Below are positions 13,543 to 32,000 of a stretch of DNA of 32,000 bases, piece after piece. The stretch's first letter is position 1, and each line of letters begins with the position of its first letter. The position numbers and the translations under genes were made by a program. The notes under the pieces are model-generated. The model was given only the letters and a program-made list of their open reading frames with translations. It searched no databases and was not told where the DNA came from. The stretch is taken from contig NZ_QLIR01000011.1 in assembly GCF_003428155.1 (NCBI RefSeq), forward strand, positions 35,396-67,395. Reading direction: 5' to 3'. This DNA is from Fastidiosibacter lacustris (GTDB lineage: Bacteria > Pseudomonadota > Gammaproteobacteria > Francisellales > Francisellaceae).

Positions 13543-13644
13543 GGCAGTCTAGATTGGTTAAACTAGCATGTTGTTATAGCTTCAAGTTTATAATTTGCTA
13601 CAATGTGTTCATTAGTCTTCAATGAACACTGGATTTTTGTTCTT

Positions 13645-14574: not shown

Positions 14575-15359
14575 AGGACATGACAATTAAAGAATATTGG
14601 ACGATTTATTATACGCTTCTTAGAAAAGAAGTTGTGCGCATATTTAGAATATGGCCACAAACGATTTTACCATCTGCCATTACGATGAGTTTATATTTTT
14701 TAATATTTGGCAAAGTCGTTGGTGCACGTGTTGGAATGATGGATGGCTTTGATTATATGCAGTTTATTACTCCAGGACTTGTTATTATGGCGGTGATTAA
14801 CAACGCCTATGCAAATGTAGTTGGATCTTTTTATGGTGCGCGTTTTAGTCATTCAATCGAAGAATTACTTGTTTCTCCTGCTAATAACCATCTGATTATT
14901 TTGGGATATATTTCGGGTGGGATTGTGCGTGGTGTAATTGTTGGTGTATTGGTAAGTATTGTTGCGGCACTCTTTGGTGGAATATCATTACATTTTCATA
15001 ATCTATTATTGATTATGCTTGCCTTTTTATTGTGTGGGGCGTTATTTTCATTGGGCGGGTTGCTCAATGGGATATTTTCCCAGAGCTTTGATGATACAAC
15101 CATTTTCCCAACTTTTGTATTAACACCACTGATTTACTTAGGGGGTGTATTTTATGGTCTAAGCGTATTGCCGCCATTTTGGCAGCATATTGTTCAATAT
15201 AATCCATTGTTTTATATTGTTGATTTTGTGCGTTTTGCTTTTATTGGATATTCTTCAATGAACCCCACAATTGCTTTTGTTGCAATTATTATCTTTATCG
15301 TTGTTTTATATAGTCTTGCATGGTATTTATTATCGCGTGGTATTCGTCTGAAGTCTTAA
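14568..15359 (+). CDS. ABC-2 type transporter permease (YadH-like)
   Basis: 263 aa with about 6 predicted TM helices. Strong resemblance to E. coli YadH as I recall it (QTLVPP.ITM.LYF.IFG ... YMQFI.PGL.MM ... NAYANV ... IEELLV.P ... PTFVLTPL.YLGGVFY). The start is either GTG 14568 (overlapping the upstream stop) or ATG 14580. Confidence 0.8.
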   Translation: MVEDMTIKEYWTIYYTLLRKEVVRIFRIWPQTILPSAITMSLYFLIFGKVVGARVGMMDGFDYMQFITPGLVIMAVINNAYANVVGSFYGARFSHSIEELLVSPANNHLIILGYISGGIVRGVIVGVLVSIVAALFGGISLHFHNLLLIMLAFLLCGALFSLGGLLNGIFSQSFDDTTIFPTFVLTPLIYLGGVFYGLSVLPPFWQHIVQYNPLFYIVDFVRFAFIGYSSMNPTIAFVAIIIFIVVLYSLAWYLLSRGIRLKS

Positions 15360-15376
15360 ATTGAGTATTTTAATAA

Positions 15377-17026
15377 ATGAAAATTTCCATAGTTCAATTA
15401 AATTACGTTATTGCTGATTTTGACTATAACTTTGAAAAAATAAGTAAAGCAATATATACACATAAAGATTCAGATTTGATCGTTTTTTCTGAACTGTGTA
15501 TTACAGGTTACTATCCATATGATTTGTTAACTTATCCTGAAATTATTGATAGGCAAAATGAAGTAATTCAAAGAATTAAAGATTTAACAAAAAAATTACA
15601 GGTTGCTGTTATAATAGGTGCAGCTACAACAGTTTCAGCGCTTAAAAAGTTTCATAATAGTGCACTTGTAATTGATAAAGGTGAACTTGTATTTAGTTAT
15701 CATAAGCAATTAATTCCAAGTTATGGTGTATTTGATGAAGCACGGCATTTTATTCCAGCTAAAAATAACCCCGTATTTTCATTTAAAGGTCAAAGCATAG
15801 CACTTTTGGTATGTGAAGATATTTGGTATGACAATCATCAAGGCTATGATTATAATCCTATCGACGCTTTATCGTCGATAGGATTAGACGTCACTATTGT
15901 ATTAAATGCCTCACCATCGATGTTAGGCAAATTTCGACAACGCCAACGCATTGTGTCTAATATTGCCAATAAACTAAAGTCACCTATTATTTATAGCTCA
16001 CAAGTTGGTGGTTATGATGAGCTTGTCTATGATGGCGCAAGTTTTATTTGTAATAAAAAGGGCGAGCTTATCGCTCTAGCAAAGCATTTTGAAGAGGATG
16101 TAATTAGTGTTGACTTGGCAAATTTACCTTCTACGATATTGCCTTATCCTTATCAGAATCAGCCATATGCTTTAGTTTTAAAGCAGCTTACCTGTGGGCT
16201 TTATGATTATGTGCATAAATGTGGTTTTAAGGGTGTGGTTGTGGGCTCATCTGGTGGCATTGATAGTGCTTTGACACTTGCTATTGCAACTTTAGCATTA
16301 GGTAAAGAAAATGTAAAAGCCATTACGATGCCATCAGCTTATTCTTCAGCAGGCAGCGTTGATGACTCTGTTAAGCTATGCCACAATCTTGAAATTGAGT
16401 TATTTATCCGTGAGATCAAAGAAGAATTCTTATTAACTTGTCAGAATTTTGAAAAGGCATTTGGGCATCTACCTAAAAAACTCACCCAAGAGAATATGCA
16501 AGCACGCATTCGTGGACGCATTGTGATGGAATATTCTAATGACAGCGGATTTTTGATGCTTACAACAGGTAACAAAAGCGAGTTGGCGGTAGGTTATGCA
16601 ACCCTCTATGGAGATATGTGTGGTGCGTTGAATTGCATAGGTGATTTGTATAAACACGACGTTTATGCGTTAGCTGAATATATCAATCAATGTTATGGTG
16701 AGCTTATCCCCAAAGCGATCATTGATAAAGCCCCATCTGCGGAACTTTCAGAAGGTCAGAAAGATTCGGATAGTTTACCGGATTACTACTATTTAGATGC
16801 TATGCTTAAACTCTATTTAGAACGTGATTTATTGCAAGAAACAGAAATTAAGCATCTACAAAAAATCGTTGATAAAGTGGATATAAAAGAGCAAAAACGC
16901 ATTTATAAAATGGTGGAATTTGCTGAATTTAAACGTAAGCAAGCACCACAAATTCTGTTTATTCAACGTCGACCTTTTGGAATAGGGCGCAGAATGCCAG
17001 TAACAGCAAAATTTCAAAAGCAATAG
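15377..17026 (+). CDS. nadE: Glutamine-dependent NAD+ synthetase
   Basis: 549 aa. N-terminal CN-hydrolase domain with Glu/Lys/Cys contexts FSELCITGY, HKQLIP, LLVCEDIW. C-terminal NAD synthetase domain with PP-loop GSSGGIDSAL. Confidence 0.9.
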   Translation: MKISIVQLNYVIADFDYNFEKISKAIYTHKDSDLIVFSELCITGYYPYDLLTYPEIIDRQNEVIQRIKDLTKKLQVAVIIGAATTVSALKKFHNSALVIDKGELVFSYHKQLIPSYGVFDEARHFIPAKNNPVFSFKGQSIALLVCEDIWYDNHQGYDYNPIDALSSIGLDVTIVLNASPSMLGKFRQRQRIVSNIANKLKSPIIYSSQVGGYDELVYDGASFICNKKGELIALAKHFEEDVISVDLANLPSTILPYPYQNQPYALVLKQLTCGLYDYVHKCGFKGVVVGSSGGIDSALTLAIATLALGKENVKAITMPSAYSSAGSVDDSVKLCHNLEIELFIREIKEEFLLTCQNFEKAFGHLPKKLTQENMQARIRGRIVMEYSNDSGFLMLTTGNKSELAVGYATLYGDMCGALNCIGDLYKHDVYALAEYINQCYGELIPKAIIDKAPSAELSEGQKDSDSLPDYYYLDAMLKLYLERDLLQETEIKHLQKIVDKVDIKEQKRIYKMVEFAEFKRKQAPQILFIQRRPFGIGRRMPVTAKFQKQ

Positions 17027-17368
17027 GAGTTTTAAATGAAAAAGGTAGCTGCGTTTGTATTATCATAAAATATGTTGATCTGTTAGATGAAATTGACAAG
17101 ACCCAATCACTTAAATATTTGAAAAAAGGTTAAATGATAAAGAATACTATAAAATATCAAAATACGATGGATTGGTAAGACAAAATTATATTACTTTATT
17201 TGCGAATATCAGCATTCTTTAAATAAACTTGATAACCTTTTTACTAAAGGTTTAGAAATAACTCACAAAGATAGAAATAAAAAAGGCATCAAAATTTTAT
17301 TGTGACTGTGCTTTATCTCATTTAAGCTTGGAAGCTAAATGATATAAAGATGAAAGTTAGAAACCACT

Positions 17369-18634
17369 ATGTCAGTTGACAAACCAAAATATGCCATGTT
17401 ATTTACTCCAATTTTAAGCATGTGTATTTTAACTATTGGTAATACTTTTTATACAACTTATACCACGCTTGAATTAGAGCGTATGGGGCAGAGTAATTTT
17501 ATTGTGGGTTTGATCTCTGCTGCTTATTTTACTGGAATGGTGCTAGGTTCTTATTTTAGTCAAAAGCTTATTTTGCGAATAGGTTATATTCGAGCATATG
17601 TCCTATTTGCAACTTTGATGGGGTTAGGCGCTATCTCACAGGGTATATTCTATGACGTACCCATTTGGGGAATATCACGTTTTATTTGTGGTTATGCACT
17701 TGCTGGGCTTTTTATCGTTGTTGAAGCATGGTGCTTAGAGGGAGCAGGTAAGAGTCACAAAGGACTTGTATTGTCGATTTATTTGTTTATTTATTATTTT
17801 GTCCAAGCAAGCGGACAATTTTTATTAAATATTCCATTTAACAGCGTGTTGATGACCTTTTGTGTGATTTCCATTTTGGCATCGATATCGATTATCCCAG
17901 TGTGTTTGACACGTTTTGAAATGCCAAAACAGGAGCATCCTAATCTGCTTTCACCTGTTATCCTTTATAAAAAAGCACCACTTGGTATGTGGACAGCGCT
18001 TGTTGCCGGGATGATATTAGGGAGTATTTATACGATTTATCCATTATTTCTAAAACAAGCAAAGATTCCCATTGAAAGCATTTCGTATCTGATGTTTGCC
18101 ATTATTCTTGGTGGTATGTTGCTTCAATTACCAATTGGTAAAATATCTGATTTAGTTGATCGCAGGATTGTGCTTGTATCAATGTTGATAGGCTCGGTGT
18201 TTATTTCCATTTTGATTTGTATCTTTCATAATAATTTTTGGCAACTTGCGATTTTTTCATTTATCCTAGGTGGACTTACTTTTACTTTTTACCCTTTGTC
18301 TATTAGCTATTCTAGCGATTATTTAAGTGCCGATCAGTTGATAGGTATCGTTGGGATTTTAGCACTTTCTTATGGGATGGGATCAATGATAGGACCGCTT
18401 GGTGTGACTTGGCTTATGTCCTTGTTTGGACCGTTTGGATTTTTTATTTATGTTGGTTTTGTTTGTTTATTGCTTATGACTTACACTTTATGGCGTATAC
18501 GTGTGCGTCAAGCACCCAATAATAATGAGAAGGTTGCATTTCAAAGCATGGCTGCTGAAACTTCTGTGGCGATAGAAGTCGTTTATGAACAGCAGTTAAT
18601 GGAAGAAAAAGAAGCCCCTGCTCATAAGCAATAA
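17369..18634 (+). CDS. MFS transporter (YcaD-like), substrate unknown
   Basis: 421 aa with about 12 TM helices. N-terminal half parallels E. coli YcaD as I recall it (S..YFTG...G......RIG..R.Y ... RF..G...A...VV.E.W......... .G..L..Y...YY..Q..GQ.LL). Confidence 0.7.
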   Translation: MSVDKPKYAMLFTPILSMCILTIGNTFYTTYTTLELERMGQSNFIVGLISAAYFTGMVLGSYFSQKLILRIGYIRAYVLFATLMGLGAISQGIFYDVPIWGISRFICGYALAGLFIVVEAWCLEGAGKSHKGLVLSIYLFIYYFVQASGQFLLNIPFNSVLMTFCVISILASISIIPVCLTRFEMPKQEHPNLLSPVILYKKAPLGMWTALVAGMILGSIYTIYPLFLKQAKIPIESISYLMFAIILGGMLLQLPIGKISDLVDRRIVLVSMLIGSVFISILICIFHNNFWQLAIFSFILGGLTFTFYPLSISYSSDYLSADQLIGIVGILALSYGMGSMIGPLGVTWLMSLFGPFGFFIYVGFVCLLLMTYTLWRIRVRQAPNNNEKVAFQSMAAETSVAIEVVYEQQLMEEKEAPAHKQ

Positions 18635-18655
18635 ACTCTGCAAAATGATTTTTGA

Positions 18656-19711
<1,056 letters not shown>

Positions 19712-19758
19712 TAGATAAAAAGATCAAAGAAAATATAAAAAAATAAAAAGGTTTAAAA

Positions 19759-22140
19759 ATGAAATTCAGTCATCAATGGTTGAGCAATTATTTGGATGAA
19801 AGCCCCACAGTGAGTGTGCTTAAGGAAAAACTCACCACAGCAGGATTAGAAGTCGATTCAATTGAGGCGGTCGCACCACCTTTTAGTGGTGTTGTTGTAG
19901 CAGAAATTAAAAGTATTGAAAAACATCGAGCTGCCGATAAGTTAAATATTTGCCAAGTAGATATTGGTGAAGATGAGCTATTGACTATCGTTTGTGGAGC
20001 AGGAAATGTTTACGCCGGAATGAAAGCACCACTGGCAAAAATTGGAGCACGGTTGCCTGGTGATTTTAAAATCAAAAAAAGTGAGCTTAGAGGGCAAGAG
20101 TCTTTTGGTATGTTGTGCTCGGAAAAAGAGCTAGGCATAAGTGAAGAAAGTGAAGGTTTAATGGACTTACCTATTGACGCCCCTATTGGTATAGATATAC
20201 GCCAGTATTTACAGTTGGACGATGATGTTATAGAAGTCGACTTAACGCCAAATCGCGCCGATTGTTTAAGTGTTTATGGTATTGCTAGAGAAGTGTCAGC
20301 CTTAACAAGTTCAAAATTAATAAAATTACCAGTAGTTGAATTACAAGCAACACAAAAAGCATCTAAAACCATAATAAGCCAAGCAAGCACACTTTGTCCG
20401 CGCTATTTTGGACGAATGATTAAAAGCGTTAATACTAAAGCTACAACACCTTTGTGGATGAAAGAGCGGTTACGTCGTTCAGGTTTGCGTTCAATTTCAG
20501 TTATTGTAGATATTACCAATTACGTTCTACTTGAACTTGGTCAGCCGATGCACGCATTTGATGCTGATAAACTAACAGGTAGTGTTTATACACGTATGGC
20601 AAAAGAGGGTGAGAAGATTATTTTGCTAGATGAGACTGAGGTGACTTTAAAAAGCAATACGCTTGTTATTGCTGATGATAACAAAGTGTTGGCAATTGCA
20701 GGTGTGATGGGTGGGCTTTATTCTTCGGTGACGGAAAACAGCAAGACTATATTCTTAGAAAGTGCTTATTTTACACCAGAGGCAATCGCAGGAAAAGCGC
20801 GTCAATATGGACTTCACACCGATTCATCTCATCGATTTGAACGTGGTGTAGATCCTAATCTTTGTGCATATGCAATTGATTATGCAACTTATCTTATTCT
20901 TGATATTGCTGGTGGAGAAATAGAAGATCTAGCAGTTGCAGATCACTATGTTGATGAAAACAAAATAATAACTTTGCGTTTGAGCAAGATTAATTCTATT
21001 TTAGGGATGAATTTTGAGACAAGTTATGTTGAGCAAATACTTCAATCATTGAATATCTCTATCAATAAATTATCACAAGATGCAAATGAAACACTTTGGC
21101 AGGTAATCCCGCCAAGCTATCGTTTTGATATAGCAATTGAAGAAGACTTGATTGAAGAGGTTGGTCGTATTTATGGCTATCAAAACTTACCGATGAGTTT
21201 ACCAGAAGTATCTTTGATACAACAGCAGGTATCTGAACAGGTAGTGGCGCTTAATCGTTTAAAAATAGTTTTGGTTGATCGTGGTTATCATGAGGTAGTG
21301 AATTACAGTTTTATCGACCCTAAACTAGATGCTTTATTTTTTAACCAGGCGGGACTTACATTACAAAACCCAATTTCACAAGATATGTCAGTGATGCGCC
21401 AAGGTCTGATTCCTGGGTTAGTCAGTACTTTTAAGTTCAACTTAAACCGTCAACAGTCACGCATACGCATTTTTGAAGAAGGAGTGTGCTTTCAACCAGC
21501 TGAGCAGCTGGCACATGAATATTTGCATTTTGCAGGTCTTGCTTATGGCAATATCAATCCACTGAATTGGCAAGAAACAACTTTAGCAGACTTCTATTCT
21601 GTTAAAGCCGATGTGGAGGCGTTACTACAACTTAATAAAAAGTCGATTAATTATGTTACATGTGAAGATATCGATTGGTTGCACCCAGGTCAGTCTGCTT
21701 ATATTTACCAAAACGGCGAGCAAGTTGGTGTGATTGGTATTTTGCATCCAAATATTATGAAAGTCATGCAGATTAAGGGGAAATCACCTGTCGTATTTGA
21801 GCTGCAAACTAGCAAAATTTCAAATCGAGATATTGCTAAGTTCATGGCAATTTCAAAATATCCAGCGGTTTCACGTGACATTGCGGTGATTGTTGATCGA
21901 AATACAACAGCTCAAAGGTTAATCGATGCAGTGAATAAAGCAAATGTATCACATTTGAATCAAGTGGATTTATTTGACATCTATCAAGGCGAAAGCTTGC
22001 CTGAAGATAAGAAGAGTGTTGCTTTAAATTTAATATTTCAAGACAATACGCAAACGCTGACTGATGAAATGATGAATGAAGCAATTACTAAAATTCTTAC
22101 CTCTTTAAAAACCCATGTGGATGCGAGTTTGCGTGAATAG
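19759..22140 (+). CDS. pheT: Phenylalanine--tRNA ligase beta subunit
   Basis: 793 aa. N-terminal tRNA-binding (OB) domain, B3/B4 and B5 regions, and a C-terminal FDX-ACB-like domain (ISKYPAVSRDIAVIV). Sits immediately after pheS. Confidence 0.93.
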   Translation: MKFSHQWLSNYLDESPTVSVLKEKLTTAGLEVDSIEAVAPPFSGVVVAEIKSIEKHRAADKLNICQVDIGEDELLTIVCGAGNVYAGMKAPLAKIGARLPGDFKIKKSELRGQESFGMLCSEKELGISEESEGLMDLPIDAPIGIDIRQYLQLDDDVIEVDLTPNRADCLSVYGIAREVSALTSSKLIKLPVVELQATQKASKTIISQASTLCPRYFGRMIKSVNTKATTPLWMKERLRRSGLRSISVIVDITNYVLLELGQPMHAFDADKLTGSVYTRMAKEGEKIILLDETEVTLKSNTLVIADDNKVLAIAGVMGGLYSSVTENSKTIFLESAYFTPEAIAGKARQYGLHTDSSHRFERGVDPNLCAYAIDYATYLILDIAGGEIEDLAVADHYVDENKIITLRLSKINSILGMNFETSYVEQILQSLNISINKLSQDANETLWQVIPPSYRFDIAIEEDLIEEVGRIYGYQNLPMSLPEVSLIQQQVSEQVVALNRLKIVLVDRGYHEVVNYSFIDPKLDALFFNQAGLTLQNPISQDMSVMRQGLIPGLVSTFKFNLNRQQSRIRIFEEGVCFQPAEQLAHEYLHFAGLAYGNINPLNWQETTLADFYSVKADVEALLQLNKKSINYVTCEDIDWLHPGQSAYIYQNGEQVGVIGILHPNIMKVMQIKGKSPVVFELQTSKISNRDIAKFMAISKYPAVSRDIAVIVDRNTTAQRLIDAVNKANVSHLNQVDLFDIYQGESLPEDKKSVALNLIFQDNTQTLTDEMMNEAITKILTSLKTHVDASLRE

Positions 22141-22146
22141 GGTTAG

Positions 22147-22668
22147 TTAATAACAGTACTCAATTGCTTTGAAAATTCCCTGTATGATTTGAACAGGTGA
22201 AGGAGGGCACCCTTTGACAACTACATCCACTGGAATAATCCCTTGAATTCCTCCTTCAACCGCATAACTGTCTTTAAAAACGCCTCCACAATGCGCACAA
22301 TCACCTATAGCTAGAACTAACTTTGGATGAGGCATGGCCTCATAGGTTTTAACAAGCGCATCACGCATATTTTTGGTTATAGGACCTGTCACAAATAACA
22401 TGTCGGCATGACGGGGACTTGCAACAAATCGTATACCATAGCTCTCAAGGTTATAAAAGGGATTGTTAGTTGCATGAACTTCAAGTTCGCAGGCATTACA
22501 AGAGCCGGCATCCACCATACGAATAGCAAGTGCTTTACCAAAACGTTGAGCAATTCTTTTTTCAAGTATCTTGCCAACTATTTCTAGATCATCAATATCA
22601 TTAACTATAGGGTTTATTTTTTCACTTTTAATACCTGTTTTAAGTAACTTTTTTGTAAACTTCCACAT
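22147..22668 (-). CDS. Group-4 hydrogenase small-subunit / NuoB-like [4Fe-4S] protein of the Ehr-type complex
   Basis: 173 aa. Hydrogenase-style cluster motifs GSCNACELE, DMLFVTGPIT, AIGDCAHCGGVF and KGCPPSP give the four Cys of an N2-type cluster. GAGGA Shine-Dalgarno 9 nt upstream of the ATG. Start is 2 nt after the upstream stop. Confidence 0.85.
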   Translation of the reverse strand: MWKFTKKLLKTGIKSEKINPIVNDIDDLEIVGKILEKRIAQRFGKALAIRMVDAGSCNACELEVHATNNPFYNLESYGIRFVASPRHADMLFVTGPITKNMRDALVKTYEAMPHPKLVLAIGDCAHCGGVFKDSYAVEGGIQGIIPVDVVVKGCPPSPVQIIQGIFKAIEYCY

Positions 22669-22670
22669 GA

Positions 22671-24197
22671 TTAGCTGTCCTCACCACTGTAGCTTAAGTT
22701 AAAAGATTTATTAATAAGTGGAAAATCAGCAACGATATTATTCATAACAGCATGACTTAATGCAGGCCAGTTTTGCCATGAAGGATCGTGGAAATGGCAC
22801 CATGAAACTTTAGTATCATGAAGTTGGACTGCAATACATATAGGGCCTCTCCAACTCTCTACGCACATAATACTGATCTTTTCTGTTGAGGATTGATCTA
22901 TGTCAAGTGCTTGTGTACAGTTATTGAATCCTAATTGCAAAAATTGTTCAATCATATCAATGCTTTGTAAGCATTCACGAAAACGCACATATACGCGTGC
23001 AGCGACATCACCTGTTTCTGCCGTTATAGGTGTAAAATCAATTTCAGAATAAGGATAAAGTGTGCAGGATGCCCTGGCATCGATAGCAATGCCAGATGCC
23101 TTTGCGATTATACCTAAAACACCTAAAGATTGAGCAAGAGTATGCGTTAAAATACCGGTTGTTTTCAAGCGATCTTGAAGTCCATGGTGATCATGATAAA
23201 TCTGCTCTAATTGGAACAACTGCTTTTTTACATCATTAAGGTGGTTGAGTAAATCATGTACTATAGATTTATCCCACATAGTCATATACTGTTGTGGGGA
23301 GATGGCATCCATCATATATCGATGATGTGTTAGCAGTTTATTCTCACGTACAAGTTTTTCTTTTAAGATGGAGAATTGCATTGCTAAGCTGATAAAACCG
23401 GTGTCGTTAATAATAGCACCAATATCACCGATGTGGTTAATCAAGCGTTCGCGTTCAAGTAAAATAGCACGTATACATTTTGTTTTAGCATCTATTTCAA
23501 AGCCAAGCTGCTTCTCACAAGCAAGTGCAAAAGCATAAGCATAAGCTACAGTAGTGTCACCACTTACTCTTCCAAGTAAAGAAGCTGCTTCTGACATGCT
23601 TTTATTGATAAGTAAAGAATGAATGCCTTTATGTGTGTATCCCAATCGATCTTCTAGTTTTAAAATTCGCTCACCAACGATAGAAAAACGAAAGTGTCCA
23701 GGTTCGATAATTCCTGCATGCACAGGACCTACTGGAATTTCATGGACTCCTTCTCCTGAGACTTTGTTAAAAACATAATGTAATTTGGCAAAGCGACTTG
23801 ATTTGCTGTAGGGATTTAAAATTCCCATTTTGAAATGACCATGATTTAGCCATGCACGTTTATCTTTTGCTTTTTTTGTTGGAATTTTGGTTAAATCGTG
23901 GATAGCTCTGTGTAATCTCTCATTTATAGGAAAGGCTTCACTTAAATCAATAAGCATTGGTCGTTTTGGATTTAGTCGAGACACAATGCAGAGCCAGTAG
24001 GCTTGATAATAATACAATACATACCAGTTCGTTTCATTTGAAGAGGAGTCAAAAGCAATCCATTCTGTAAGCAAAAGACCATTTTGAGATTTAATTTCTT
24101 TAGCAAGAGGATATTGTAACCTAATATCAACAGATAAATATTGATAAGCCTTGATGTTATTAAAGTGTAAAAGATCATTCAGCATTGTTTTATTCAT
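22671..24197 (-). CDS. HycE/HyfG-like (NuoC-NuoD fusion) large-subunit homolog lacking the [NiFe] cysteine ligands
   Basis: 508 aa. Degenerate NuoC-like N-terminal part, then the group-4 large-subunit core (HEIPVGPVHAGIIEPGHFRF, LEDRLGYTHKGIH). The ligand motifs read RVSGDTTVAY and FNLSYSGEDS-stop instead of RxCGxCxxxH and DPCxxCxxR. No CxxC anywhere. ATGA overlap with the upstream gene. Confidence 0.85.
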   Translation of the reverse strand: MNKTMLNDLLHFNNIKAYQYLSVDIRLQYPLAKEIKSQNGLLLTEWIAFDSSSNETNWYVLYYYQAYWLCIVSRLNPKRPMLIDLSEAFPINERLHRAIHDLTKIPTKKAKDKRAWLNHGHFKMGILNPYSKSSRFAKLHYVFNKVSGEGVHEIPVGPVHAGIIEPGHFRFSIVGERILKLEDRLGYTHKGIHSLLINKSMSEAASLLGRVSGDTTVAYAYAFALACEKQLGFEIDAKTKCIRAILLERERLINHIGDIGAIINDTGFISLAMQFSILKEKLVRENKLLTHHRYMMDAISPQQYMTMWDKSIVHDLLNHLNDVKKQLFQLEQIYHDHHGLQDRLKTTGILTHTLAQSLGVLGIIAKASGIAIDARASCTLYPYSEIDFTPITAETGDVAARVYVRFRECLQSIDMIEQFLQLGFNNCTQALDIDQSSTEKISIMCVESWRGPICIAVQLHDTKVSWCHFHDPSWQNWPALSHAVMNNIVADFPLINKSFNLSYSGEDS

Positions 24198-25654
24198 GAC
24201 TTTCCACCTATGATGGAATATATAGCAGAATCAAGTAAGAAAATAGGCATATAAAGTCCTGCTATGATAACCAATATCAAATGAGCTCCCACTGTCCAGT
24301 AAATATGTTTTGTATTTTTTAAATGAGTGATGGGAGTGTTTAATTGTCCAAAAAACAATGGCTGAGTTTTTAATAGTATGGCTAAAAATGCGAGTATCAG
24401 TCCTACGACAAGCAAAATCATAAGACCAATATTAGCCTCCATTGCTGCTAGAATCAGTAGTAATTCACTTATAAACAATCCCGATGGTGGTAAACCAAGA
24501 ATAGCCAAAAAAGAGATTAAAAATAAACTTGCGGTTATAGGAGATTTTTCAAATAATGCACGAATTTTTTGTAGTACTTGAGTATGAAATTGCTGAATTA
24601 CTGTACCAGATATTAAGAGCAAAGCAGTTTTAACTAAGGCATGTATCCAGATGTGTAGTATCGCTGTAAGTAATGCAAGCCTGTTGCCAATTCCAATTGC
24701 AATGCTGATAAGTCCCATGTGTTCAATTGAAGAGTATGCTAACAAGCGATTAAGTGTTCGTTGGCGAAATAGTGATAGGGCTGCAAAAAATAAGCTGATA
24801 AAGCCAAAGGTTAAGAAAAGGTAACAAGGAAAATTAATTAAGCCTGCGTTGGCAAATAATAGCTTAAACTTGAGCAAGGCAAATAACGCTAAATTAAGCA
24901 AAGCGCCTGATGATAAGGCATTTACCATTGGGTATCCTTCGGCATAGGCATCTGGCAACCAATTGTGTAATGGGACGAATCCGACTTTAGTACCATAACC
25001 AACAAAAAGAAATACAAAGCTGATGCTTAATAATTTGGCAGGAATTTGAGAGATATTTGTCATTAATTTTGTCCATAGTAAGCCTTCTTCTCCCAGACCA
25101 TGAGTATAAGCACCAAAATATAAAATCACAGTACCAAGTAGTGCAAACCCAATACCTACGCCGCATAAAATCAAATATTTCCATGAAGCTTCTAGCGCTT
25201 GTGGGGTTTGTCTTAATCCGACTAATGCAATACTGGAGATAGTAGCAAGTTCCATGGCAATCCACATCATGCCGATATTATTACTGAGTAATACAATCAG
25301 CATGCCTAGCAAGAACAATTGGTAAGTCGTATGATAAAAGCGATAAACTAAAGGATGTAAATGTGTTTTATTTTCATTATCCAGATAGCTAATGCTATAA
25401 AAACTTGTGCTCATTCCAATAAAGCTGCTAAGTATAATAAAAAGGACATTCAGTTTGTCACACATAAACCAGTCTTTGAAAAAAAATAGTGCTGTATCTT
25501 CAACATATATTACATAGCCTAAAATAATGCTTATGATAAAGCTTAAACTGCATAATATAGCATTTACATGAGTCGCATATTTCCTGTTTTCTATCCAAGG
25601 CAATAGGACTAAAGCAATAACAGAAGGCAAGAGTAATAGCGTAATCAAGTTCAT
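24194..25654 (-). CDS. HyfF/HyfD-like antiporter-type membrane subunit (NuoM/N family)
   Basis: 486 aa with about 14 TM helices. Proton-conducting-transporter family pattern (GFVPLHNWLPDAYAEG, LAYSSIEHMG). ATGA overlaps at both ends. Confidence 0.8.
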   Translation of the reverse strand: MNLITLLLLPSVIALVLLPWIENRKYATHVNAILCSLSFIISIILGYVIYVEDTALFFFKDWFMCDKLNVLFIILSSFIGMSTSFYSISYLDNENKTHLHPLVYRFYHTTYQLFLLGMLIVLLSNNIGMMWIAMELATISSIALVGLRQTPQALEASWKYLILCGVGIGFALLGTVILYFGAYTHGLGEEGLLWTKLMTNISQIPAKLLSISFVFLFVGYGTKVGFVPLHNWLPDAYAEGYPMVNALSSGALLNLALFALLKFKLLFANAGLINFPCYLFLTFGFISLFFAALSLFRQRTLNRLLAYSSIEHMGLISIAIGIGNRLALLTAILHIWIHALVKTALLLISGTVIQQFHTQVLQKIRALFEKSPITASLFLISFLAILGLPPSGLFISELLLILAAMEANIGLMILLVVGLILAFLAILLKTQPLFFGQLNTPITHLKNTKHIYWTVGAHLILVIIAGLYMPIFLLDSAIYSIIGGKS

Positions 25655-26304
25655 ATACGCTCCTTTAGTTTCTCAAATAACTGAACTTGGAAGGAACCAT
25701 GCTCTTGCTGTATTCGGATTAAGAATAGTGTGAAAATCATAAAACCCATAAGGATATCAAAACTCATCCCAAGTTCGATTAGCCAAGGGAATCCTGTGCT
25801 TATCGCTGCGGCTAGAATAAAGATACTGTTTTCTAATACTAATAGACCCATTACTTGAGTGACAGTTTTTCTTCTAAAAGTAATGATTAATACAGCTACA
25901 AATGCATTGGCAAGTCCAAGTGAAAATCCTGAAATGTAGCGATGAAGCATACTGTTGACCAACTGCTGTCCTAAAATTAATGCCAAGAGAATAAGCGCAG
26001 ATGCTAGTAACAGTAGACTAGGCTTATTCAGTATTGGTTCAATACGTCCGGAAAGGTGTAAAAATTGAACTAATTTCCATAGTAAAAATGGTAAAAGAAT
26101 AACTTTGATGCCAATGGTAATAATTAAAGAAATAAATACTTCCATGCTTGGTGCATAGATCGTTTCTGTGAGTATGTAACTACTTAAAAGCACATTCTGA
26201 ATAATTAAAAGTTTGATTACATTCGTAATGTAAGATTGGATTAACATTAAACTACTACATAGTAGCATTGAACTTATCAAAAAAAGCAACCAACTATGAA
26301 TCAT
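25651..26304 (-). CDS. HyfE-like small membrane subunit (NuoK-related)
   Basis: 217 aa (E. coli HyfE is about this size) with about 7 TM helices. It occupies the hyfE slot between the HycD-like and HyfF-like genes. ATGA overlaps at both ends. Confidence 0.7.
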   Translation of the reverse strand: MIHSWLLFLISSMLLCSSLMLIQSYITNVIKLLIIQNVLLSSYILTETIYAPSMEVFISLIITIGIKVILLPFLLWKLVQFLHLSGRIEPILNKPSLLLLASALILLALILGQQLVNSMLHRYISGFSLGLANAFVAVLIITFRRKTVTQVMGLLVLENSIFILAAAISTGFPWLIELGMSFDILMGFMIFTLFLIRIQQEHGSFQVQLFEKLKERI

Positions 26305-27263
26305 GCTGTTGTTCCTATTAATTGTGTTAAAAGAATACCCAGAAAAGCAAGGAAAAGTGCTAAACCAAGGTACTCTGGTATTCTAAATATACGCACCTTA
26401 GTTTGTAGTGTTTCTGTAATTGCAAGTAGTGCCAATAATATAATAAGTTTGACTAAGGTTGTGATGAATCCAACTGTAATGGATAATAACGAAGTTTCTA
26501 CCGCTAAACCAAAAGGAAAAAACAAATTGATAAAGATCAATAAAAATAATTCCAACTTTAACGCATTACTCCATTCTATAGCGGCTAAATATCTCCCTGA
26601 ATATTCTAGTACCATTGCTTCATGTATCATGGTCAACTCTAAATGTGTGCTTGGATTATCAAAAGGAAATCGGGAGTTTTCAGCAAGCAAAATGATAGTA
26701 AATGCGCACAAAGAGAAAGCAAGGCTAGGGTACAGCATACTATGTTGGATCAAGCTAAAACTGATATGACCAAGCGTTAACCCATGTGTTATCAAGCCAA
26801 GGTTCAATAATACAAGCAGCAATATAGGTTCAACCAAGCAGGCAATAAACATCTCTCGTCTTGCGCCTAGTGAGCCAAACGCTGATCCAATATCCATGGC
26901 AGCAAGTATCATGCTTATTCGAGCGAGTGCTAATATACCAACTAAAACAATGACGTCTATGATCGATGTAAACAAGCCACGATAGAATATAAAAGGAGTG
27001 CTAAAAGCAAGTATACTTAAAGCACAAAAGTAGATAAAAGGAGTGTATTTAAATAGCCAGGATGCATTGTAAGGCAATATGGGTTCTTTGATTAAGAGCT
27101 TATAAAATACAAAATAAGGTTGAAACAGGGAAGAAGCGGTGCGATTTTGCAGCCAACATTTAAATACTTGTAGAAAACCTATTAGTAAAGGAGAAATTAC
27201 AATAATGAGTATACCTTGTAAAGCAAGTAGCAAAATTGTGGTTATTTCTGTGGTCATATCCAT
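26301..27263 (-). CDS. HycD/HyfC-like membrane subunit (NuoH family)
   Basis: 320 aa with about 8 TM helices. NuoH/HycD hallmark loop ENSRFPFDNPSTHLELTMIHEAMVLEYSG. A second in-frame ATG at 27257 would create an ATGA overlap with the upstream stop, like all other junctions. Confidence 0.82.
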   Translation of the reverse strand: MDMTTEITTILLLALQGILIIVISPLLIGFLQVFKCWLQNRTASSLFQPYFVFYKLLIKEPILPYNASWLFKYTPFIYFCALSILAFSTPFIFYRGLFTSIIDVIVLVGILALARISMILAAMDIGSAFGSLGARREMFIACLVEPILLLVLLNLGLITHGLTLGHISFSLIQHSMLYPSLAFSLCAFTIILLAENSRFPFDNPSTHLELTMIHEAMVLEYSGRYLAAIEWSNALKLELFLLIFINLFFPFGLAVETSLLSITVGFITTLVKLIILLALLAITETLQTKVRIFRIPEYLGLALFLAFLGILLTQLIGTTA

Positions 27264-29191
27264 AATACCAAGATGAGTAAAACAAGTAGCGTTAAGCCAA
27301 CGTAGGTCAAATAAACAGAAATTTTTCCTTGTTGAATCCAGCGTGTTATAAAAACAATCTTCCAGATAGCTTGTGTTATGGGTTTATAAAAAAAAGGCCA
27401 TATTTTTTCGGAAATATAAACAAAATAGTGAGGTTTATCACCATTGATATTGGATATATTAATTTTTACTTGAATCAATTTAGAGAAAATCTGTTTAAAT
27501 GGTTGGGAAAACCCCTCAGCAGAATCTTGCATACGTGAGTTAATGGAATCAAAGCCACATCCCCAGGTGGCATCTCTACGGAAGTGCTTATGGATCAAGG
27601 GGAAAATAAGTAACAAGCTTAAAATCATGATAAATGCTAACAGTAATGGAGCAAAATAATTACTGTTTGCCAAGGTTGAATGTGGAAATGAAATAGTGAA
27701 ACTACCCTTCCAAACAAGAGTGAATTTATCGGATATTGAGTTAATTACTTTTTGAATCATAGAGATAAATGGTGCAGGGTATAAACCAATTACGATCGTC
27801 CATATTGTAAGCCACAGTAGAGACACTCGCTCTAACAAATTGGCTGGTTTAGCATGTATTAGTTGAGACTCTCTGGGTTGACCTAAAAATGCAATGCCAA
27901 AAAACTTTACAGCGACAAAACCTGCTAAGGCAAATACCAACATACTTGTGGCAGCAATGACAATAGATAGTACAGCAAAGTTGAAATGCTCGAATGTTTG
28001 CTGTTTGAAAAAAAGCTGTAAATAAAGCCATTCGGAAATAAATCCACTGAATAATGGTAAGCCTGCCATTGCTAAGCAACCTGTCAATGCGCAAGCACTC
28101 ACCCATGGCATTTTTTGAATAAGCCCACCTAATTTTCCAATATTGCGTTCACCTGTTGCATGTAAAATTGAACCTGTGCAGAGAAAAAGTAAAGATTTAA
28201 ATAGGCTATGGCTTAAGCTATGCAATAAAACAATCAGCAAAGCGACGTTAGATAGCGTGTATTGTTGATATTGATAAAAAACAATAGCAAAACCTAGATT
28301 TAATACAATAAATCCCAAATTCTCTATGGAAGAATAGGCCAATAGTCGTTTCATATCGCTTTGTAGTGCAGCATGGAGGACGCCAATGAGCATGCTAAGT
28401 AATCCAATTGCAATAAATAAAAAACCCCACCATGATTGTTGCCATGGGAGGAGCCAGTAGAAACTAAAGCGAATGAGTCCATAAATCGCCGTTTTTAACA
28501 TAACACCGCTCATCAATGCAGAAATTGGGCTAGGAGCGGCAGGATGTGCTTCTGGTAACCAAATGTGCAATGGAAAAAGACCTGCCTTTGCACCAAATCC
28601 AATTAACATAAGAGTAAATACTAAATTAGCTAGAGGTAGGGCAAAATCACTGTGGTTTAATAGAAAAAAAGCGCTACTGATGCATAAAAAGCCAATATGT
28701 GCAATGCCTAAATATAAAAAACCTGCTTGTCGGACAACTTTAGCTGTGTTGCCGCATACTACTAGAAAATAAGAACTTAAACTCATTATCTCCCAAGCAA
28801 ATAGAAAGGTAAATGTGTTACTTGCACTCAATACCATAAGCATCCCAAGGACGAAAAAAGGGTAAGCTATATGAATAACTCTTTGATGTTTTAAGCTAAA
28901 GTGTCGGAAATAAGCTTGCCCAAACCCCGAAATAGCAACTGTTGACAGTCCTAACAAAAGCACAAAAAAGCGTGATAATTCATCTAGTTGAAATAAGAAA
29001 GTTAGATTTTCAGGTAGCAATGTAATTTCAAATGTTATGCTTATTAATTTCACGTAAAAAATAGCACTCATTATAATCAGTAAAGCGGCAATGATGGTTG
29101 CGTATCTAAAATGACTAAAAAAGCGACTCGGAAGCACAAATGAAAGGCATCCTAGCACAAGCCAAATGAATAATATTATATGTAATATCAT
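27254..29191 (-). CDS. HyfB/HycC-like antiporter-type membrane subunit (NuoL family)
   Basis: 645 aa. Antiporter-like core (GLFPLHIWLPEAHPAAPSPISALMSG, LAYSSIENLG). It also has the HyfB/HycC-specific C-terminal module containing TWGCGFD....MQDSAEGFSQPF. First gene of the operon. Confidence 0.85.
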   Translation of the reverse strand: MILHIILFIWLVLGCLSFVLPSRFFSHFRYATIIAALLIIMSAIFYVKLISITFEITLLPENLTFLFQLDELSRFFVLLLGLSTVAISGFGQAYFRHFSLKHQRVIHIAYPFFVLGMLMVLSASNTFTFLFAWEIMSLSSYFLVVCGNTAKVVRQAGFLYLGIAHIGFLCISSAFFLLNHSDFALPLANLVFTLMLIGFGAKAGLFPLHIWLPEAHPAAPSPISALMSGVMLKTAIYGLIRFSFYWLLPWQQSWWGFLFIAIGLLSMLIGVLHAALQSDMKRLLAYSSIENLGFIVLNLGFAIVFYQYQQYTLSNVALLIVLLHSLSHSLFKSLLFLCTGSILHATGERNIGKLGGLIQKMPWVSACALTGCLAMAGLPLFSGFISEWLYLQLFFKQQTFEHFNFAVLSIVIAATSMLVFALAGFVAVKFFGIAFLGQPRESQLIHAKPANLLERVSLLWLTIWTIVIGLYPAPFISMIQKVINSISDKFTLVWKGSFTISFPHSTLANSNYFAPLLLAFIMILSLLLIFPLIHKHFRRDATWGCGFDSINSRMQDSAEGFSQPFKQIFSKLIQVKINISNINGDKPHYFVYISEKIWPFFYKPITQAIWKIVFITRWIQQGKISVYLTYVGLTLLVLLILVLWI

Positions 29192-29286
29192 TTATGATAT
29201 GAGAAGACCTTAAACACACCGAGGTATTATAAGGTAAGCAGGTTTATTTGTATATTGAAAGTTAATTGAATTTCCCTAGAGCATTG

Positions 29287-30447
29287 CTAAATATGTACTG
29301 TGGATGATAATGTTTCCGCTTTATCAGTCTTTTCCCAGGTAAAATCAATATCCTCTCGACCAAAGTGACCGTAACTTGCAGTTTTTTGGTAAATTGGACG
29401 CAATAAATCTAATTGATGGGTAATTGCATAAGGGCGAAGATCAAAATGCTTAAGTATAAGTTCTTCTATCACATAATCATCCACCTTACCTGTACCAAAA
29501 GTATTAACCATAATAGAAGTAGGCTGTGCAACGCCAATAGCATATGAAACTTGGATTTCACATTTATCGGCCAAACGACTAGCCACAATATTTTTAGCGA
29601 TATATCGTCCCATATAGGCGGCAGAACGATCGACTTTGGAAGGATCCTTCCCAGAAAAAGCGCCTCCTCCATGGTGTGCTGCGCCTCCATAGCTATCAAC
29701 GATAATTTTACGTCCTGTTAAGCCACAATCACCAACAGGTCCTCCAATCACAAATTTTCCAGTAGGATTAATAAGATATTTGGTTTTAGCTGTAATCCAT
29801 TCTTTAGGTAAAATAGGTAGAATAATTTCTTCAATAACGGCTTCTTTAATAGCACTTTGTCCTATATCTGCTGCATGTTGGGTAGAGATAACAACTGTAT
29901 CTACAGCAATTGGTTTACCATCGATATAACGCAATGTGACTTGGCTCTTAGCATCAGGACGAAGCCAAGAGAGGGTTTTGTTTTTGCGCAAAAATGCTTG
30001 TCGTTGCATAAGCTTGTGCGCGTAATAAATTGCTGCAGGCATTAAAGTTGGTGTTTCGTTAGTAGCAAAGCCAAACATAAGTCCTTGATCACCTGCACCT
30101 TGATCAAGTGGATTTTGGCGATCCACACCTTGTGCGATTTCAGGAGATTGTTTGCCAATAGCATTGATAACCGCACAATCATTACCATCAAAGCCAAGCT
30201 CGTCTTTGTCATAGCCAATACCTACGACAACTTTGCGTACGATATCTTCGATATCAACCCAAGCAGAAGTTGTAATCTCGCCAGCAACTAATACCATTCC
30301 AGTTTTAACAAGCGTTTCACATGCAACACGAGCATGTTTGTCTTGCGCTAAAATAGCATCAAGAATTGCATCTGAAATCTGATCAGCAATTTTGTCTGGA
30401 TGACCTTCAGAGACAGACTCAGAGGTGAATAAAAAATCATTTGCCAT
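29287..30447 (-). CDS. metK: S-adenosylmethionine synthetase
   Basis: 386 aa. Motifs [41 protein letters not shown]. Confidence 0.95.
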
Positions 30448-30584
30448 ATTTGTATCCCTTTACTTTGTATTTTATAACAAGCTAAAAGGCTTCTATAAAA
30501 GGAGAATGAAAGTATAGAAACGCTTTAGCGGTGTTATTTTTTTGTCGCCCGCAAGTTGTTGTTAAATCAGCGACAGTGCGCAAT

Positions 30585-30613
30585 ATGTTAAGTTGATGTC
30601 AATAAGCTGTCAA
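30585..30613 (-). promoter_or_regulatory. Candidate sigma-70 promoter for metK
   Basis: On the minus strand: TTGACA (30613-30608), a 17-nt spacer, then TAACAT (30590-30585). This would give a leader of about 130 nt before the metK ATG at 30447. Hexamer matches in AT-rich DNA are weak evidence. Confidence 0.25.
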
Positions 30614-30707
30614 ATGTTTTTCTTCTCATTTGCCAAATATGGGTTGTTAATCTGTAATCTGCAGCGTTTGACTAAGTATTTCTGTAATCGTTTTATAAGC
30701 TGCCGAA

Positions 30708-30767
30708 ATTGATTGCCTCTTGTAGCACACGTAAAAAGTGCTTATCAAAATCACAAGGGCAATCAGT
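30708..30767. repeat. Imperfect inverted repeat / long stem-loop; possible terminator of the LRR gene or a protein-binding site
   Basis: TGATTGCC(T)CTTGT at 30710-30723 pairs with ACAAGGGCAATCA at 30753-30765 (13 bp plus one bulged T, extendable by 2 bp). A nested 5-bp stem pairs AGCAC with GTGCT (30724-30742). On the minus-strand RNA the stem is followed by AAUUUCGG. Confidence 0.55.
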
Positions 30768-30814
30768 AGCATGACTAAATATTTAGAACCAGTCCCTAGT
30801 CAATGAGAAGGCAC

Positions 30815-30830
30815 CCCTTTTTAGAAAGGG
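30815..30830 (-). terminator. Weak candidate intrinsic terminator 16 nt after the LRR gene stop
   Basis: CCCTTT-ttag-AAAGGG, a 6-bp stem with a 4-nt loop. The downstream minus-strand sequence (GUGCCUUCUCAUU) is only moderately U-rich. Confidence 0.2.
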
Positions 30831-30845
30831 ATGTAAATGCCTAGA

Positions 30846-32000
30846 TTATTTTTGACACTCTTGGTGATTTGGATTCCATATAATTTCATCGGTATTAAAA
30901 TTCATAAAGGCTTCCTGATGGAAATCATATGCTGACGAGGGTTCCTTATTACGACAAATAATCACAGACTTAAGTTTAGTAGGATCAATCTGATAAAAAG
31001 CTTGGTTACCAATCGTTGTAACACTATTTGGGATGACCACTGAAGTAAGCGGAGCCGCAGCAAAAGCCTCATCTCCAATAAATGTAACTTTATTAGGTAT
31101 TTTGATTGAAGTTAGGAATTTAGTCGAAAAAGCATAACTTTCAATCCTTTTAACGCTATCAGGTATCTTAACCGAAGCTAGTCTTGTGTTACCAAATAGA
31201 GATGAGCTGATAATTGTAATACCCTCAGGTAAGATAGCTGAAGTTAGCTGTACACCATAGAAAAAAGCAAGAGGTCCAATATCTGTTACACTATTAGGTA
31301 TAATTACTGTGGATAGCGTAGTGTTATAGTAAAAAGCTGCCTGACCAATTTTTCTCACACTCGCTGGGATCACAACAGAGGTTAGTCTATTCTCAAAAGC
31401 AGATGTACTAATTTCTGTTACACCATAGGGAATCACGACATCGGTTAGTGACCCTATATAATTGCTTAGAACGCCATTTTGAATAGTCATACCATCTGTA
31501 TTGTGAACTTGGATAGAAGTATAGAAGTGCTCTACTGTGCCATTTTTATCTTTAACGTCTATTCTAATTTTATGTTCACCCAGCTTAGTATTTGCCGTTG
31601 GTTTAAGTTTTATTGTTATATAGTTTTGATTTTGAGCACTCTCAAGTGTGACCCCAACAGAATTGTTTTGAGTTTCATCCGTTACTGTAATGGTGGGATC
31701 AGTAAAAGAACGGGTATACAGCTTAATCGTTGCTAGTTTAGCAAGATCGTTTACATCTACTGATCTGCCTTGTGTATTATCGATTGTGTCATAATAATAG
31801 ACAACGTCTTTGTATACTACTTCGCCATTACTCTTAATCGTAAAATCAGCAATGCTGTTTGATGCTAATAAATGCATTGAAGAATCCTTAAAACTGATAC
31901 TGCATGGCTCTTGATCAAGTAATGATTGACAGTTCACGCCAGTAAGTTCAGATTCACCTATTGTGAATGTAAGGTTCTCTAAATCACGCCCTGATACATT
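30846..32000 (-). CDS. BspA-type leucine-rich-repeat protein with an upstream Ig-like beta-sandwich region (partial; N-terminus outside the window)
   Basis: Seven or more 22-23-aa repeats of the form L(T/S)SVxIPxSVxxIGxxAF (aa 164-345 of the track ORF, nt about 30903-31448). The reading frame stays open from the GTG at 31937 to the window edge at 32000, so the true start is probably beyond the window. Confidence 0.75.
   Translation of the reverse strand, partial: NVSGRDLENLTFTIGESELTGVNCQSLLDQEPCSISFKDSSMHLLASNSIADFTIKSNGEVVYKDVVYYYDTIDNTQGRSVDVNDLAKLATIKLYTRSFTDPTITVTDETQNNSVGVTLESAQNQNYITIKLKPTANTKLGEHKIRIDVKDKNGTVEHFYTSIQVHNTDGMTIQNGVLSNYIGSLTDVVIPYGVTEISTSAFENRLTSVVIPASVRKIGQAAFYYNTTLSTVIIPNSVTDIGPLAFFYGVQLTSAILPEGITIISSSLFGNTRLASVKIPDSVKRIESYAFSTKFLTSIKIPNKVTFIGDEAFAAAPLTSVVIPNSVTTIGNQAFYQIDPTKLKSVIICRNKEPSSAYDFHQEAFMNFNTDEIIWNPNHQECQK

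Follow-up and report, generated by a model that had tools for sequence, protein, structure and literature searches.

A cysteine-less hydrogenase-type large subunit of the Hyq/Ehr family and its six-gene operon in Fastidiosibacter lacustris

Relation to the Hyq and Ehr complexes

The hyqRBCEFGI genes were described in Azorhizobium caulinodans (Ng 2009, PMC2650096). Their large subunit, HyqG, is a 504-residue NuoC::NuoD fusion devoid of both CxxC motifs, it is accompanied by a small subunit, HyqI, with four conserved Cys residues, and a Ni,Fe site in HyqG was rated 'uncertain, if not unlikely' (Sprecher 2012, PMC3357923). The term Ehr (energy-converting hydrogenase-related) designates group-4-like complexes having a large subunit without Ni/Fe ligands and Mrp-like antiporter subunits (PMC6349859, PMC10284858, PMC4758237), and the Ehr of comammox Nitrospira is placed there close to group 4f and without CxxC (PMC10284858). 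Here we report that a minus-strand open reading frame (ORF) at 22671-24197 of a 32,000-nucleotide stretch of F. lacustris DNA (the window, by which we mean this whole stretch) encodes a 508-residue protein that is, as judged from its alignments and its operon, a HyqG/EhrL member of this Hyq/Ehr family. The family and the loss of its Cys ligands have been in the literature since 2012-2013, and what is new here is the organism.

The protein is 100% identical to WP_116964181.1 of F. lacustris (Thiotrichales), whose database label reads 'Ni,Fe-hydrogenase III large subunit'. Its gene is the fifth of six in a tightly packed minus-strand operon (HyfB/C/E/F/G/I-like) whose neighboring genes overlap by 4-10 nucleotides (nt) or sit 2 nt apart and show no frameshifts. 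The six genes are the following (lengths in amino acids, aa):

27254..29191, minus strand: HyqB, HyfB-like antiporter-type membrane subunit, operon gene 1 (645 aa; Pfam Proton_antipo_M, 7.6e-47)
26301..27263, minus strand: HyqC, NuoH/HyfC-like membrane subunit (320 aa; Pfam NADHdh, 5.3e-29; 10-nt overlap with the upstream gene)
25651..26304, minus strand: HyqE, HyfE-like small membrane subunit (217 aa; NCBIfam hydrogenase 4 membrane subunit, 1.8e-10; 4-nt overlap)
24194..25654, minus strand: HyqF, HyfF/NuoM-like antiporter-type subunit (486 aa; Pfam Proton_antipo_M, 1.2e-45; 4-nt overlap on each side)
22671..24197, minus strand: HyqG/EhrL, fused NuoC-NuoD-like large subunit without the [NiFe] cysteines (508 aa)
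22147..22668, minus strand: HyqI/EhrS, NuoB/HycG-like small subunit with a full [4Fe-4S] ligand set (173 aa; Pfam Oxidored_q6, 2.5e-31)

HyqB also matches the NCBIfam model of hydrogenase 4 subunit B (3e-178), under the family cutoff. The six structural genes follow the order B-C-E-F-G-I without HyfA, HyfD and HyfH, and the large subunit is a fused NuoC::NuoD protein devoid of CxxC (508 aa here as compared with about 504), as is typical of Hyq. As in Azorhizobium, homologs of HyfA, HyfD and HycF are missing; the operon is limited to its six genes, with no NuoA, NuoJ, NuoK, NuoI or NuoEFG, and no HycF/NuoI-type ferredoxin, formate dehydrogenase or hyp gene was found by Pfam/NCBIfam annotation of the 32-kb window.

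Orthologs encoded in the same operon occur in Bradyrhizobium, R. palustris, Azospirillum, Rhizobium and Xanthobacteraceae with 41-43% identity, orthology to Hyq being judged on these diazotrophs rather than on the A. caulinodans sequence itself. These alpha-proteobacterial orthologs end in DFPLCNKSFNCSYSGxDL, with Cys residues exactly at positions 491 and 497 of the published 504-residue protein, which supports the Hyq identity. Cys258, Cys491 and Cys497 were reported as 'completely conserved' in alpha-proteobacterial HyqG (PMC3357923); they correspond to I263, I495 and L501 in the window protein, and positions 495 and 501 are Ile and Leu throughout the beta/gamma clade, so that these Cys residues are a mark of the alpha sub-clade only. 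Further differences from the Azorhizobium system lie in the context and in the host. Indeed, the operon follows metK, no hyqR regulator or helix-turn-helix (HTH) gene stands next to it and no NifA/sigma-54 context is present, while the host, from the Thiotrichales, is not a rhizobium but an organism in which the H2-recycling role proposed for the Hyq of diazotrophs has no obvious meaning.

The window complex also belongs with Ehr, since it combines missing Ni/Fe ligands with antiporter-like subunits, and a Nitrospirae locus of our survey (see below) falls in the same family. Ehr is however a loose class set by an absence, which includes the Geobacter Ehr and Mbx/Mbs, whereas the window family is one six-gene lineage with motifs of its own. 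Annotation frequently misassigns proteins of the Hyq/Ehr family to group 4f or hydrogenase-3/4.

The metal and quinone sites of the large subunit

Complex1_49kDa is the sole Pfam domain in the large subunit, the NCBIfam NuoD and FpoD matches being sub-threshold, and the top match among PDB chains is HycE of Escherichia coli (7z0s_E; phmmer, E=2e-31). This alignment is ungapped over both ligand motifs, with GRVSGDTTVAY facing DRVCGICGFAH of HycE on the N-terminal side and SFNLSYSGE facing SLDPCYSCT on the C-terminal side. A 30-sequence family profile aligned to HycE over nearly its full length (E=1.1e-72) gives the identical register, and the nearest Cys-containing relatives carry identical flanking letters without any gap (DFPLINKSFELCY[SA]CxDR versus DFPLINKSFNLSYSGEDS). 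Since phmmer, the family profile and the gap-free comparison with these sisters agree, the ligand positions are S212, T215, S502 and G505. A misalignment of the ligands is ruled out by this common register, and alignments with HycE, MbhL, Nqo4 and the sisters disclosed no Cys at the true ligand positions.

The stretches concerned are located as follows:

23541..23570, minus strand: R-V-S-G-D-T-T-V-A-Y, aa 210-219, equivalent of RxCGxCxxxH, with S212 and T215 in the places of Cys
22674..22706, minus strand: S-F-N-L-S-Y-S-G-E-D-S followed by the stop, aa 498-508, equivalent of DPCxxCxxR, with S502 and G505 in the places of Cys
23691..23720, minus strand: H-A-G-I-I-E-P-G-H-F, aa 160-169, loop with Glu165

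The N-terminal Cys pair typical of group 4, RxCGxCxxxH, is thus replaced by RVSGDTTVAY (RVCGICGFAH in HycE, R.CG[VA]C..SH in the sisters), and the C-terminal pair, (D/E)xCxxCxx(R/H), by SFNLSYSGEDS (SLDPCYSCTDR in HycE, SFELCYSCxDR in the sisters). Nine Cys residues are found in the protein (positions 70, 227, 241, 378, 409, 427, 445, 454 and 467), none of them in a CxxC pair. The quinone Tyr of complex I (Y87 of Nqo4, in RMDYLHS; RLDYVSM in the mitochondrial protein) aligns to G213 and His38 of Nqo4 to I164. These results bear out the original prediction, made from the DNA letters alone, that the four ligands had been exchanged for Ser, Thr, Ser and Gly, that a Gly stands in the place of the quinone Tyr and that CxxC occurs nowhere in the 508 residues; its conclusion that the pocket is neither a [NiFe] site nor a canonical complex-I quinone site is supported by phmmer and by the profile. 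It had also placed the two motifs on the DNA, correctly for residues 210-219 and one codon short for the C-terminal 11 residues, given as 22674-22703.

The group 4 large-subunit fold is nevertheless retained, as indicated by the profile match to HycE and by an AlphaFold model (predicted local distance difference test, pLDDT, 78.5; predicted template-modeling score, pTM, 0.84) for which Foldseek returns HycE 7z0s_E first (template-modeling score 0.87) and NuoCD of E. coli second. The HAGIIEPGHF loop has a low model confidence, as expected of an inter-subunit loop. HycE and HyfG share the fused NuoC-NuoD architecture with the window protein, but HycE has [NiFe] ligands, a 32-residue C-terminal extension, which is removed by maturation cleavage, and the partners HycF, HycB and FdhF. 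NuoD of complex I (Nqo4, 49-kDa subunit) resembles the window protein in being hydrogenase-derived, in lacking Ni/Fe ligands, in ending at the same point and in its location over the [4Fe-4S] cluster of NuoB and over NuoH. The window complex differs from complex I by the absence of the quinone Tyr and His (G213, I164), by the missing NuoA, NuoJ, NuoI and NuoEFG and by its small subunit, which has a hydrogenase-type CxxC motif, unlike the tandem CC of NuoB.

More than 8000 database proteins match the large subunit at E<=1e-10, and the best 120 of them (41-64% identity) were used to count residues column by column. None of these 120 has the full set of four Cys ligands, and a single Cys occurs at position 212 in 10. 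On the N-terminal side, D214 is found in all 120, G213 in 119, T216 in 117, R210 in 115, S212 in 110 and Ser or Thr at 215 in 109, while the Val, Ala and Tyr that follow are kept in 116, 116 and 106, respectively. On the C-terminal side, S498, N500, Y503 and D507 are each found in all 120, S502 and S504 in 116 and G505 in 112. The family motifs R[VI]SGD[ST]TVAY and DFPLINKSFNLSYSGxD are therefore near-invariant, the HAGIIEPGHF loop with Glu165 is invariant or near-invariant, and few parts of the protein are as conserved as these three. So strict a conservation of the S-G-D-T and S-Y-S-G stretches among orthologs speaks against both chance and decay. Furthermore, all six reading frames are intact in a second strain, whose identity to the window is 99.8% over 18 kb; the operon differs there by 15 nt, 7 of the differences being non-synonymous, which is too few for a ratio of non-synonymous to synonymous rates (dN/dS). 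Near-invariant replacement motifs together with intact frames in two strains point to selection, and the gene, as far as its sequence tells, is conserved and not decaying.

An exhaustive search of 1.84 billion representatives (50% identity clusters) gave 502 matches at E<=1e-30. Among the best 150 representatives, about 130 are Cys-less and show the form [S/A/C]-G-D-[S/T/N/E] and S-F-N-L-S-Y-[S/A/C]-G-x-D, whereas 18 keep all four ligand Cys in R.CG[VA]C..SH and SFELCY[SA]C.DR. Nearly all of these 18 carry HAG[IV]IE[PST]GHF at the Glu165 loop; they also share the DFPLINKSF... C-terminus and stop at the same residue as the window protein. This last feature bears on the idea that the stop at the HycE cleavage point betrays the loss of the metal. 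Residue 506 does pair with residue 547 of the 581-residue HycE chain, so that the window protein falls 32 residues short of the HycE precursor and ends at the cleavage point, as had been foreseen; but since the extension is also absent from the Cys-containing sisters, its absence is inherited and not diagnostic of metal-site loss.

What sets the two groups apart, besides the ligands, is position 214, an Asp in all 120 homologs and a Val, Ala or Ile in the Cys-containing relatives. In this comparison Asp214 is a gained, near-invariant hallmark of the Cys-less clade and the strongest signal in the remodeled pocket. The sisters, which correspond to six-subunit 'group 4f / Ehf' complexes with 32-40% identity to the window protein and are presumably real hydrogenases, have the same gene order and subunit sizes, likewise lack a HycF-like subunit and share the HAGIIEPGHF loop and the DFPLINKSF-L-Y---D C-terminus; they differ by the four Cys and by Val or Ala in the place of Asp214. 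One of them, GCA_000021925.1 / CP001336, which we take from its accession to be Desulfitobacterium hafniense DCB-2, has the identical six-gene arrangement without a HycF-like subunit.

In a crude neighbor-joining tree built from 129 representatives, a single compact clade holds 17 of the 18 Cys-containing sequences, and the deep branches are too short to tell one origin of the Cys-less state from many or to give the ancestral state. Some sub-clades of the Cys-less family (for example P0127, P0128, P0130, P0144 and P0208-P0211) have a lone Cys, at the first ligand position in R.CGDS... or beside the last one in SFNLSYCGxDL, and within the Cys-containing clade P0249 retains only one of its four Cys. 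These cases indicate that the pocket has been remodeled more than once.

Partner subunits, distribution and possible function

The small subunit keeps the CxxC...C...C arrangement of one [4Fe-4S] cluster (C57, C60, C124 and C154). The first three Cys are found in all 78 orthologs compared and Cys154 in 76 of the 78, and they match the published HyqI set, Cys-55/58/112/152 (PMC3357923). HyqI is thus predicted to retain one [4Fe-4S] cluster, which favors a redox-active complex. In HyqB, at least 95% of 61 orthologs keep the Glu of transmembrane helix 5 (TM5; WE.M), the Lys of TM7 (G.KAG..PlH.WLP), the Lys of TM8 (H..fKsLLF) and the Glu of TM12 (GF.sEWL); the same Glu/Lys/Lys/Glu set is kept in HyqF when aligned to MbhH and NuoM and is conserved among 69 orthologs. 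The acidic loop of HyqC, AEN.R.P.DNP.THLELTM.HEA..LEYS, is conserved among 64 orthologs, and HyqE keeps membrane Glu residues such as that of G.l..EN..f. The charged residues of proton translocation in complex I, Mbh and Mrp are thereby retained, so that the membrane subunits are predicted to be pump-competent.

A scan with one genome per species gave 80 loci in Alpha-, Beta- and Gammaproteobacteria, Acidobacteria and Nitrospirae, the operon composition being mapped by tblastn with the six window proteins. In all complete loci, as in the near clade, gene content and gene order are those of the six-gene operon. Clustering of the flanking ORFs in the 57 loci with enough sequence revealed no recurrent flanking gene, neither a conserved redox partner or maturation gene adjoining the operon nor hyp genes, but only housekeeping or sporadic neighbors (MetRS; a SulP/STAS transporter, 2 loci; a P-type ATPase, 2 loci; an HTH gene at alpha loci, HTH_3 lying upstream at five alpha-type loci). 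In two closer relatives, from the near clade, the operon likewise lies among housekeeping genes without a partner gene. The SulP-family plus STAS transporter is directly upstream on the same strand in a Rhodocyclaceae locus (L028, 2622-4760) and in Thiobacillus (L074, 2594-4717), a linkage in 2 of 57 loci that may be due to chance. A second, more divergent F-G-I-like set stands directly upstream of the Hyq-type operon in Aquabacterium (L012, 1-3467) and Methylibium (L045, 699-2680); its large subunit has 29% identity to the window protein, and these sets may be paralogous or true-hydrogenase clusters in tandem.

Taken together, gene content and alignments show what we predict to be a self-contained six-subunit membrane complex, HyqB-C-E-F-G-I, with a hydrogenase fold but with neither a [NiFe] site nor the quinone Tyr and His. 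As to its function, we tentatively favor, at a level that we would place somewhat short of probable, a minimal complex-I-like, redox-coupled and possibly reversible proton pump working with a soluble carrier, probably ferredoxin or flavodoxin, and with an acceptor in the pocket that would most plausibly be a quinone.

In such an ion pump, electrons would move between the carrier, docking directly on the small subunit, and the acceptor in the remodeled pocket. A NuoI/HycF ferredoxin subunit is not encoded, and ferredoxin or flavodoxin is the probable carrier. Since neither the Hyq locus nor its sister has a HycF-like subunit, the redox partner of the small subunit, be it donor or acceptor, is likely a general carrier in both. 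The pocket would lie at the interface of the large, small and NuoH-like subunits and be lined by S212, D214, T215, S502, E165 and D265, with a membrane quinone as a more plausible acceptor than protons. Protons would be provided or passed on by Asp214 and Glu165, and H+ translocation through HyqC/E/F/B would be powered by the reaction, which may also run in reverse, the proton-motive force then yielding low-potential reductant. Operation in reverse would agree with two published findings. One comes from Azorhizobium, in which hyq is under NifA control and its deletion affects nitrogen fixation, diazotrophic growth being slower (PMC2650096). The other is the acid induction of what is apparently the same complex in Methylocystis, in which the 'group 4f' genes are upregulated at pH 5 (log2 4.2-4.5) with no H2 detected (bioRxiv 10.1101/2025.08.29.672306) and the AARVS motif suggests the Hyq type.

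Several points weigh against this proposal. The donor, the acceptor, the direction and the pumped ion are all inferred, and the spatial clustering of the substituted residues is deduced from homology to HycE. With Tyr87 and His38 of Nqo4 absent, quinone binding would need another geometry, and without a NuoI/HycF subunit the complex has no known docking site for ferredoxin. The pocket varies among sub-clades, with Ser, Ala or Cys at 212, Ser, Thr, Asn or Glu at 215 and Ser, Ala or Cys at 504, which argues against one rigid substrate-binding geometry. Finally, the authors of the sole genetic work, in Azorhizobium, read their results in terms of the uptake and evolution of H2, not of ferredoxin/quinone chemistry (PMC2650096, PMC3357923). 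A bolder version of the proposal would make the Hyq type a distinct minimal respiratory class, with a metal-free, Asp214-centered proton-coupled pocket acting as a reversible ferredoxin/flavodoxin:quinone oxidoreductase and the Azorhizobium phenotypes arising indirectly through the reductant supply of nitrogenase; taken as a whole, we regard it as unlikely.

Alternatively, the complex could be a redox-independent transporter, that is, an Mrp-type cation/proton antiporter or pH-homeostasis device in which the hydrophilic subunits serve as a cap or as a redox-sensing regulator. The intact antiporter-like subunits, the failure to find any module for electron input or any partner gene and the induction of the apparent Methylocystis homolog under acid conditions (bioRxiv 10.1101/2025.08.29.672306) would all suit such a device, and so would the suggestion in the original prediction that the pocket acts only as a coupling element. 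We nevertheless hold it to be an unlikely solution, because the [4Fe-4S] ligands are invariant in the 78 orthologs and the conservation of the pocket motifs and of the Glu165 loop exceeds what a passive cap would need. Moreover, known Mrp antiporters function without any NuoB, NuoD or NuoH homolog.

The proposed redox pump might instead use a non-quinone acceptor, the pocket receiving a small soluble or inorganic substrate in the manner of polysulfide reduction by the Pyrococcus Mbs, whose large subunit (6u8y_L) is detectable as a homolog by phmmer and by the profile. A pocket that has been remodeled under strong selection, has gained Asp214 and is devoid of the quinone Tyr and His is compatible with this view, and the differences between sub-clades, such as the lone Cys at 212 or 504, could mean substrate diversification. 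It remains doubtful to us, as aerobic bacteria that respire with quinones make up most of the hosts, the 57 loci show no linked accessory gene specific to a substrate and the sequence points to no particular ligand.

A real hydrogenase, as Hyq was interpreted in print under the name 'endo-hydrogenase', with an unconventional catalytic center in HyqG that oxidizes or evolves H2 and exchanges electrons with quinone, appears quite improbable. It is in Azorhizobium that this view finds its support, since deletion of hyq shifts the H2 balance and diazotrophic growth (PMC2650096) and Hyq was taken to be the source of the high H2 evolution seen below 1 uM O2 (PMC2650096, PMC3357923). It is also favored by the nearest relatives of the window protein, which are true [NiFe] hydrogenases sharing its HAGIIEPGHF loop and six-gene architecture. 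All four Ni/Fe ligands are however gone, the Cys conserved in alpha HyqG are I263, I495 and L501 here and are not kept in the beta/gamma clade, and hyp genes are absent from the window and do not recur beside the 57 loci. To this can be added the reservation of Sprecher 2012 about the Ni,Fe site (PMC3357923) and the strong induction in Methylocystis with no H2 detected (bioRxiv 10.1101/2025.08.29.672306), and the Azorhizobium phenotypes could be explained indirectly, for instance by an altered supply of reductant to nitrogenase.

As for a decaying pseudogene or the remnant of a hydrogenase operon, which the loss of every catalytic ligand in a fastidious host with a window of 36.6% G+C might evoke and which would have overturned the original prediction, it is refuted and of negligible probability given six intact frames with coupled overlaps, intact frames in the second strain and replacement residues that are near-invariant in 120 homologs and in about 130 clusters at 50% identity.

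Surroundings of the operon and significance

The other genes of the 32-kb window are housekeeping ones (metK, pheST, nadE, folate genes, purL, pyrG, fumarase). The operon sits downstream of metK, from which hyqB is separated by a 95-nt spacer with one promoter-like site:

29226..29254, minus strand: TATACA-17-TATAAT in the metK-hyqB spacer (consensus scan, 10/12 matches)

This site is only a candidate promoter, such sites being no more frequent in the region than in shuffled sequence. At the other end, pheT (plus strand, ending at 22140) and the small-subunit gene (minus strand, ending at 22147) are convergent, and the 6 nt between their stop codons make an intergenic terminator impossible; the scan found none. 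A 157-aa plus-strand ORF at 26296-26769, antisense to the HyqC/HyqE genes and without a Pfam match, is almost certainly spurious. Just beyond metK, the ORF 30846-31937 (minus strand) encodes a 363-aa BspA-type leucine-rich-repeat (LRR) protein (Pfam LRR_5, 1.6e-39). The window is collinear with the 99.8%-identical metagenome-assembled genome L081 (GCA_024208055.1) from 12671 to 30786 and diverges after; DUF6812, a TatD fragment and cysS take the place of the LRR region (window 30786-32000) there, and this strain-specific breakpoint adjoins a terminator-like hairpin at 30812-30833.

Recognition of the Cys-less Hyq/Ehr type averts a false inference of H2 metabolism in Fastidiosibacter, in many aerobic Proteobacteria and in Acidobacteria and Nitrospira, and the public label 'Ni,Fe-hydrogenase III large subunit' is to be corrected. 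A 2025-26 preprint presents the apparently Hyq-type complex of Methylocystis as a 'group 4f [NiFe]-hydrogenase' without using either 'cysteine' or 'CxxC' in its text (bioRxiv 10.1101/2025.08.29.672306). To what had been described, the present comparison adds the Asp214 mark, the lack of conservation of the alpha-clade Cys elsewhere, the absence of a linked partner and the existence of a Cys-containing sister with identical six-gene architecture. The Hyq/Ehr family is large and strongly conserved, and it bears on the evolution from hydrogenases to complex I. If the complex does act as a reversible oxidoreductase, it would provide aerobes with a third route to low-potential reductant, beside Rnf and Fix, or alternatively with a means of proton export under acid stress.

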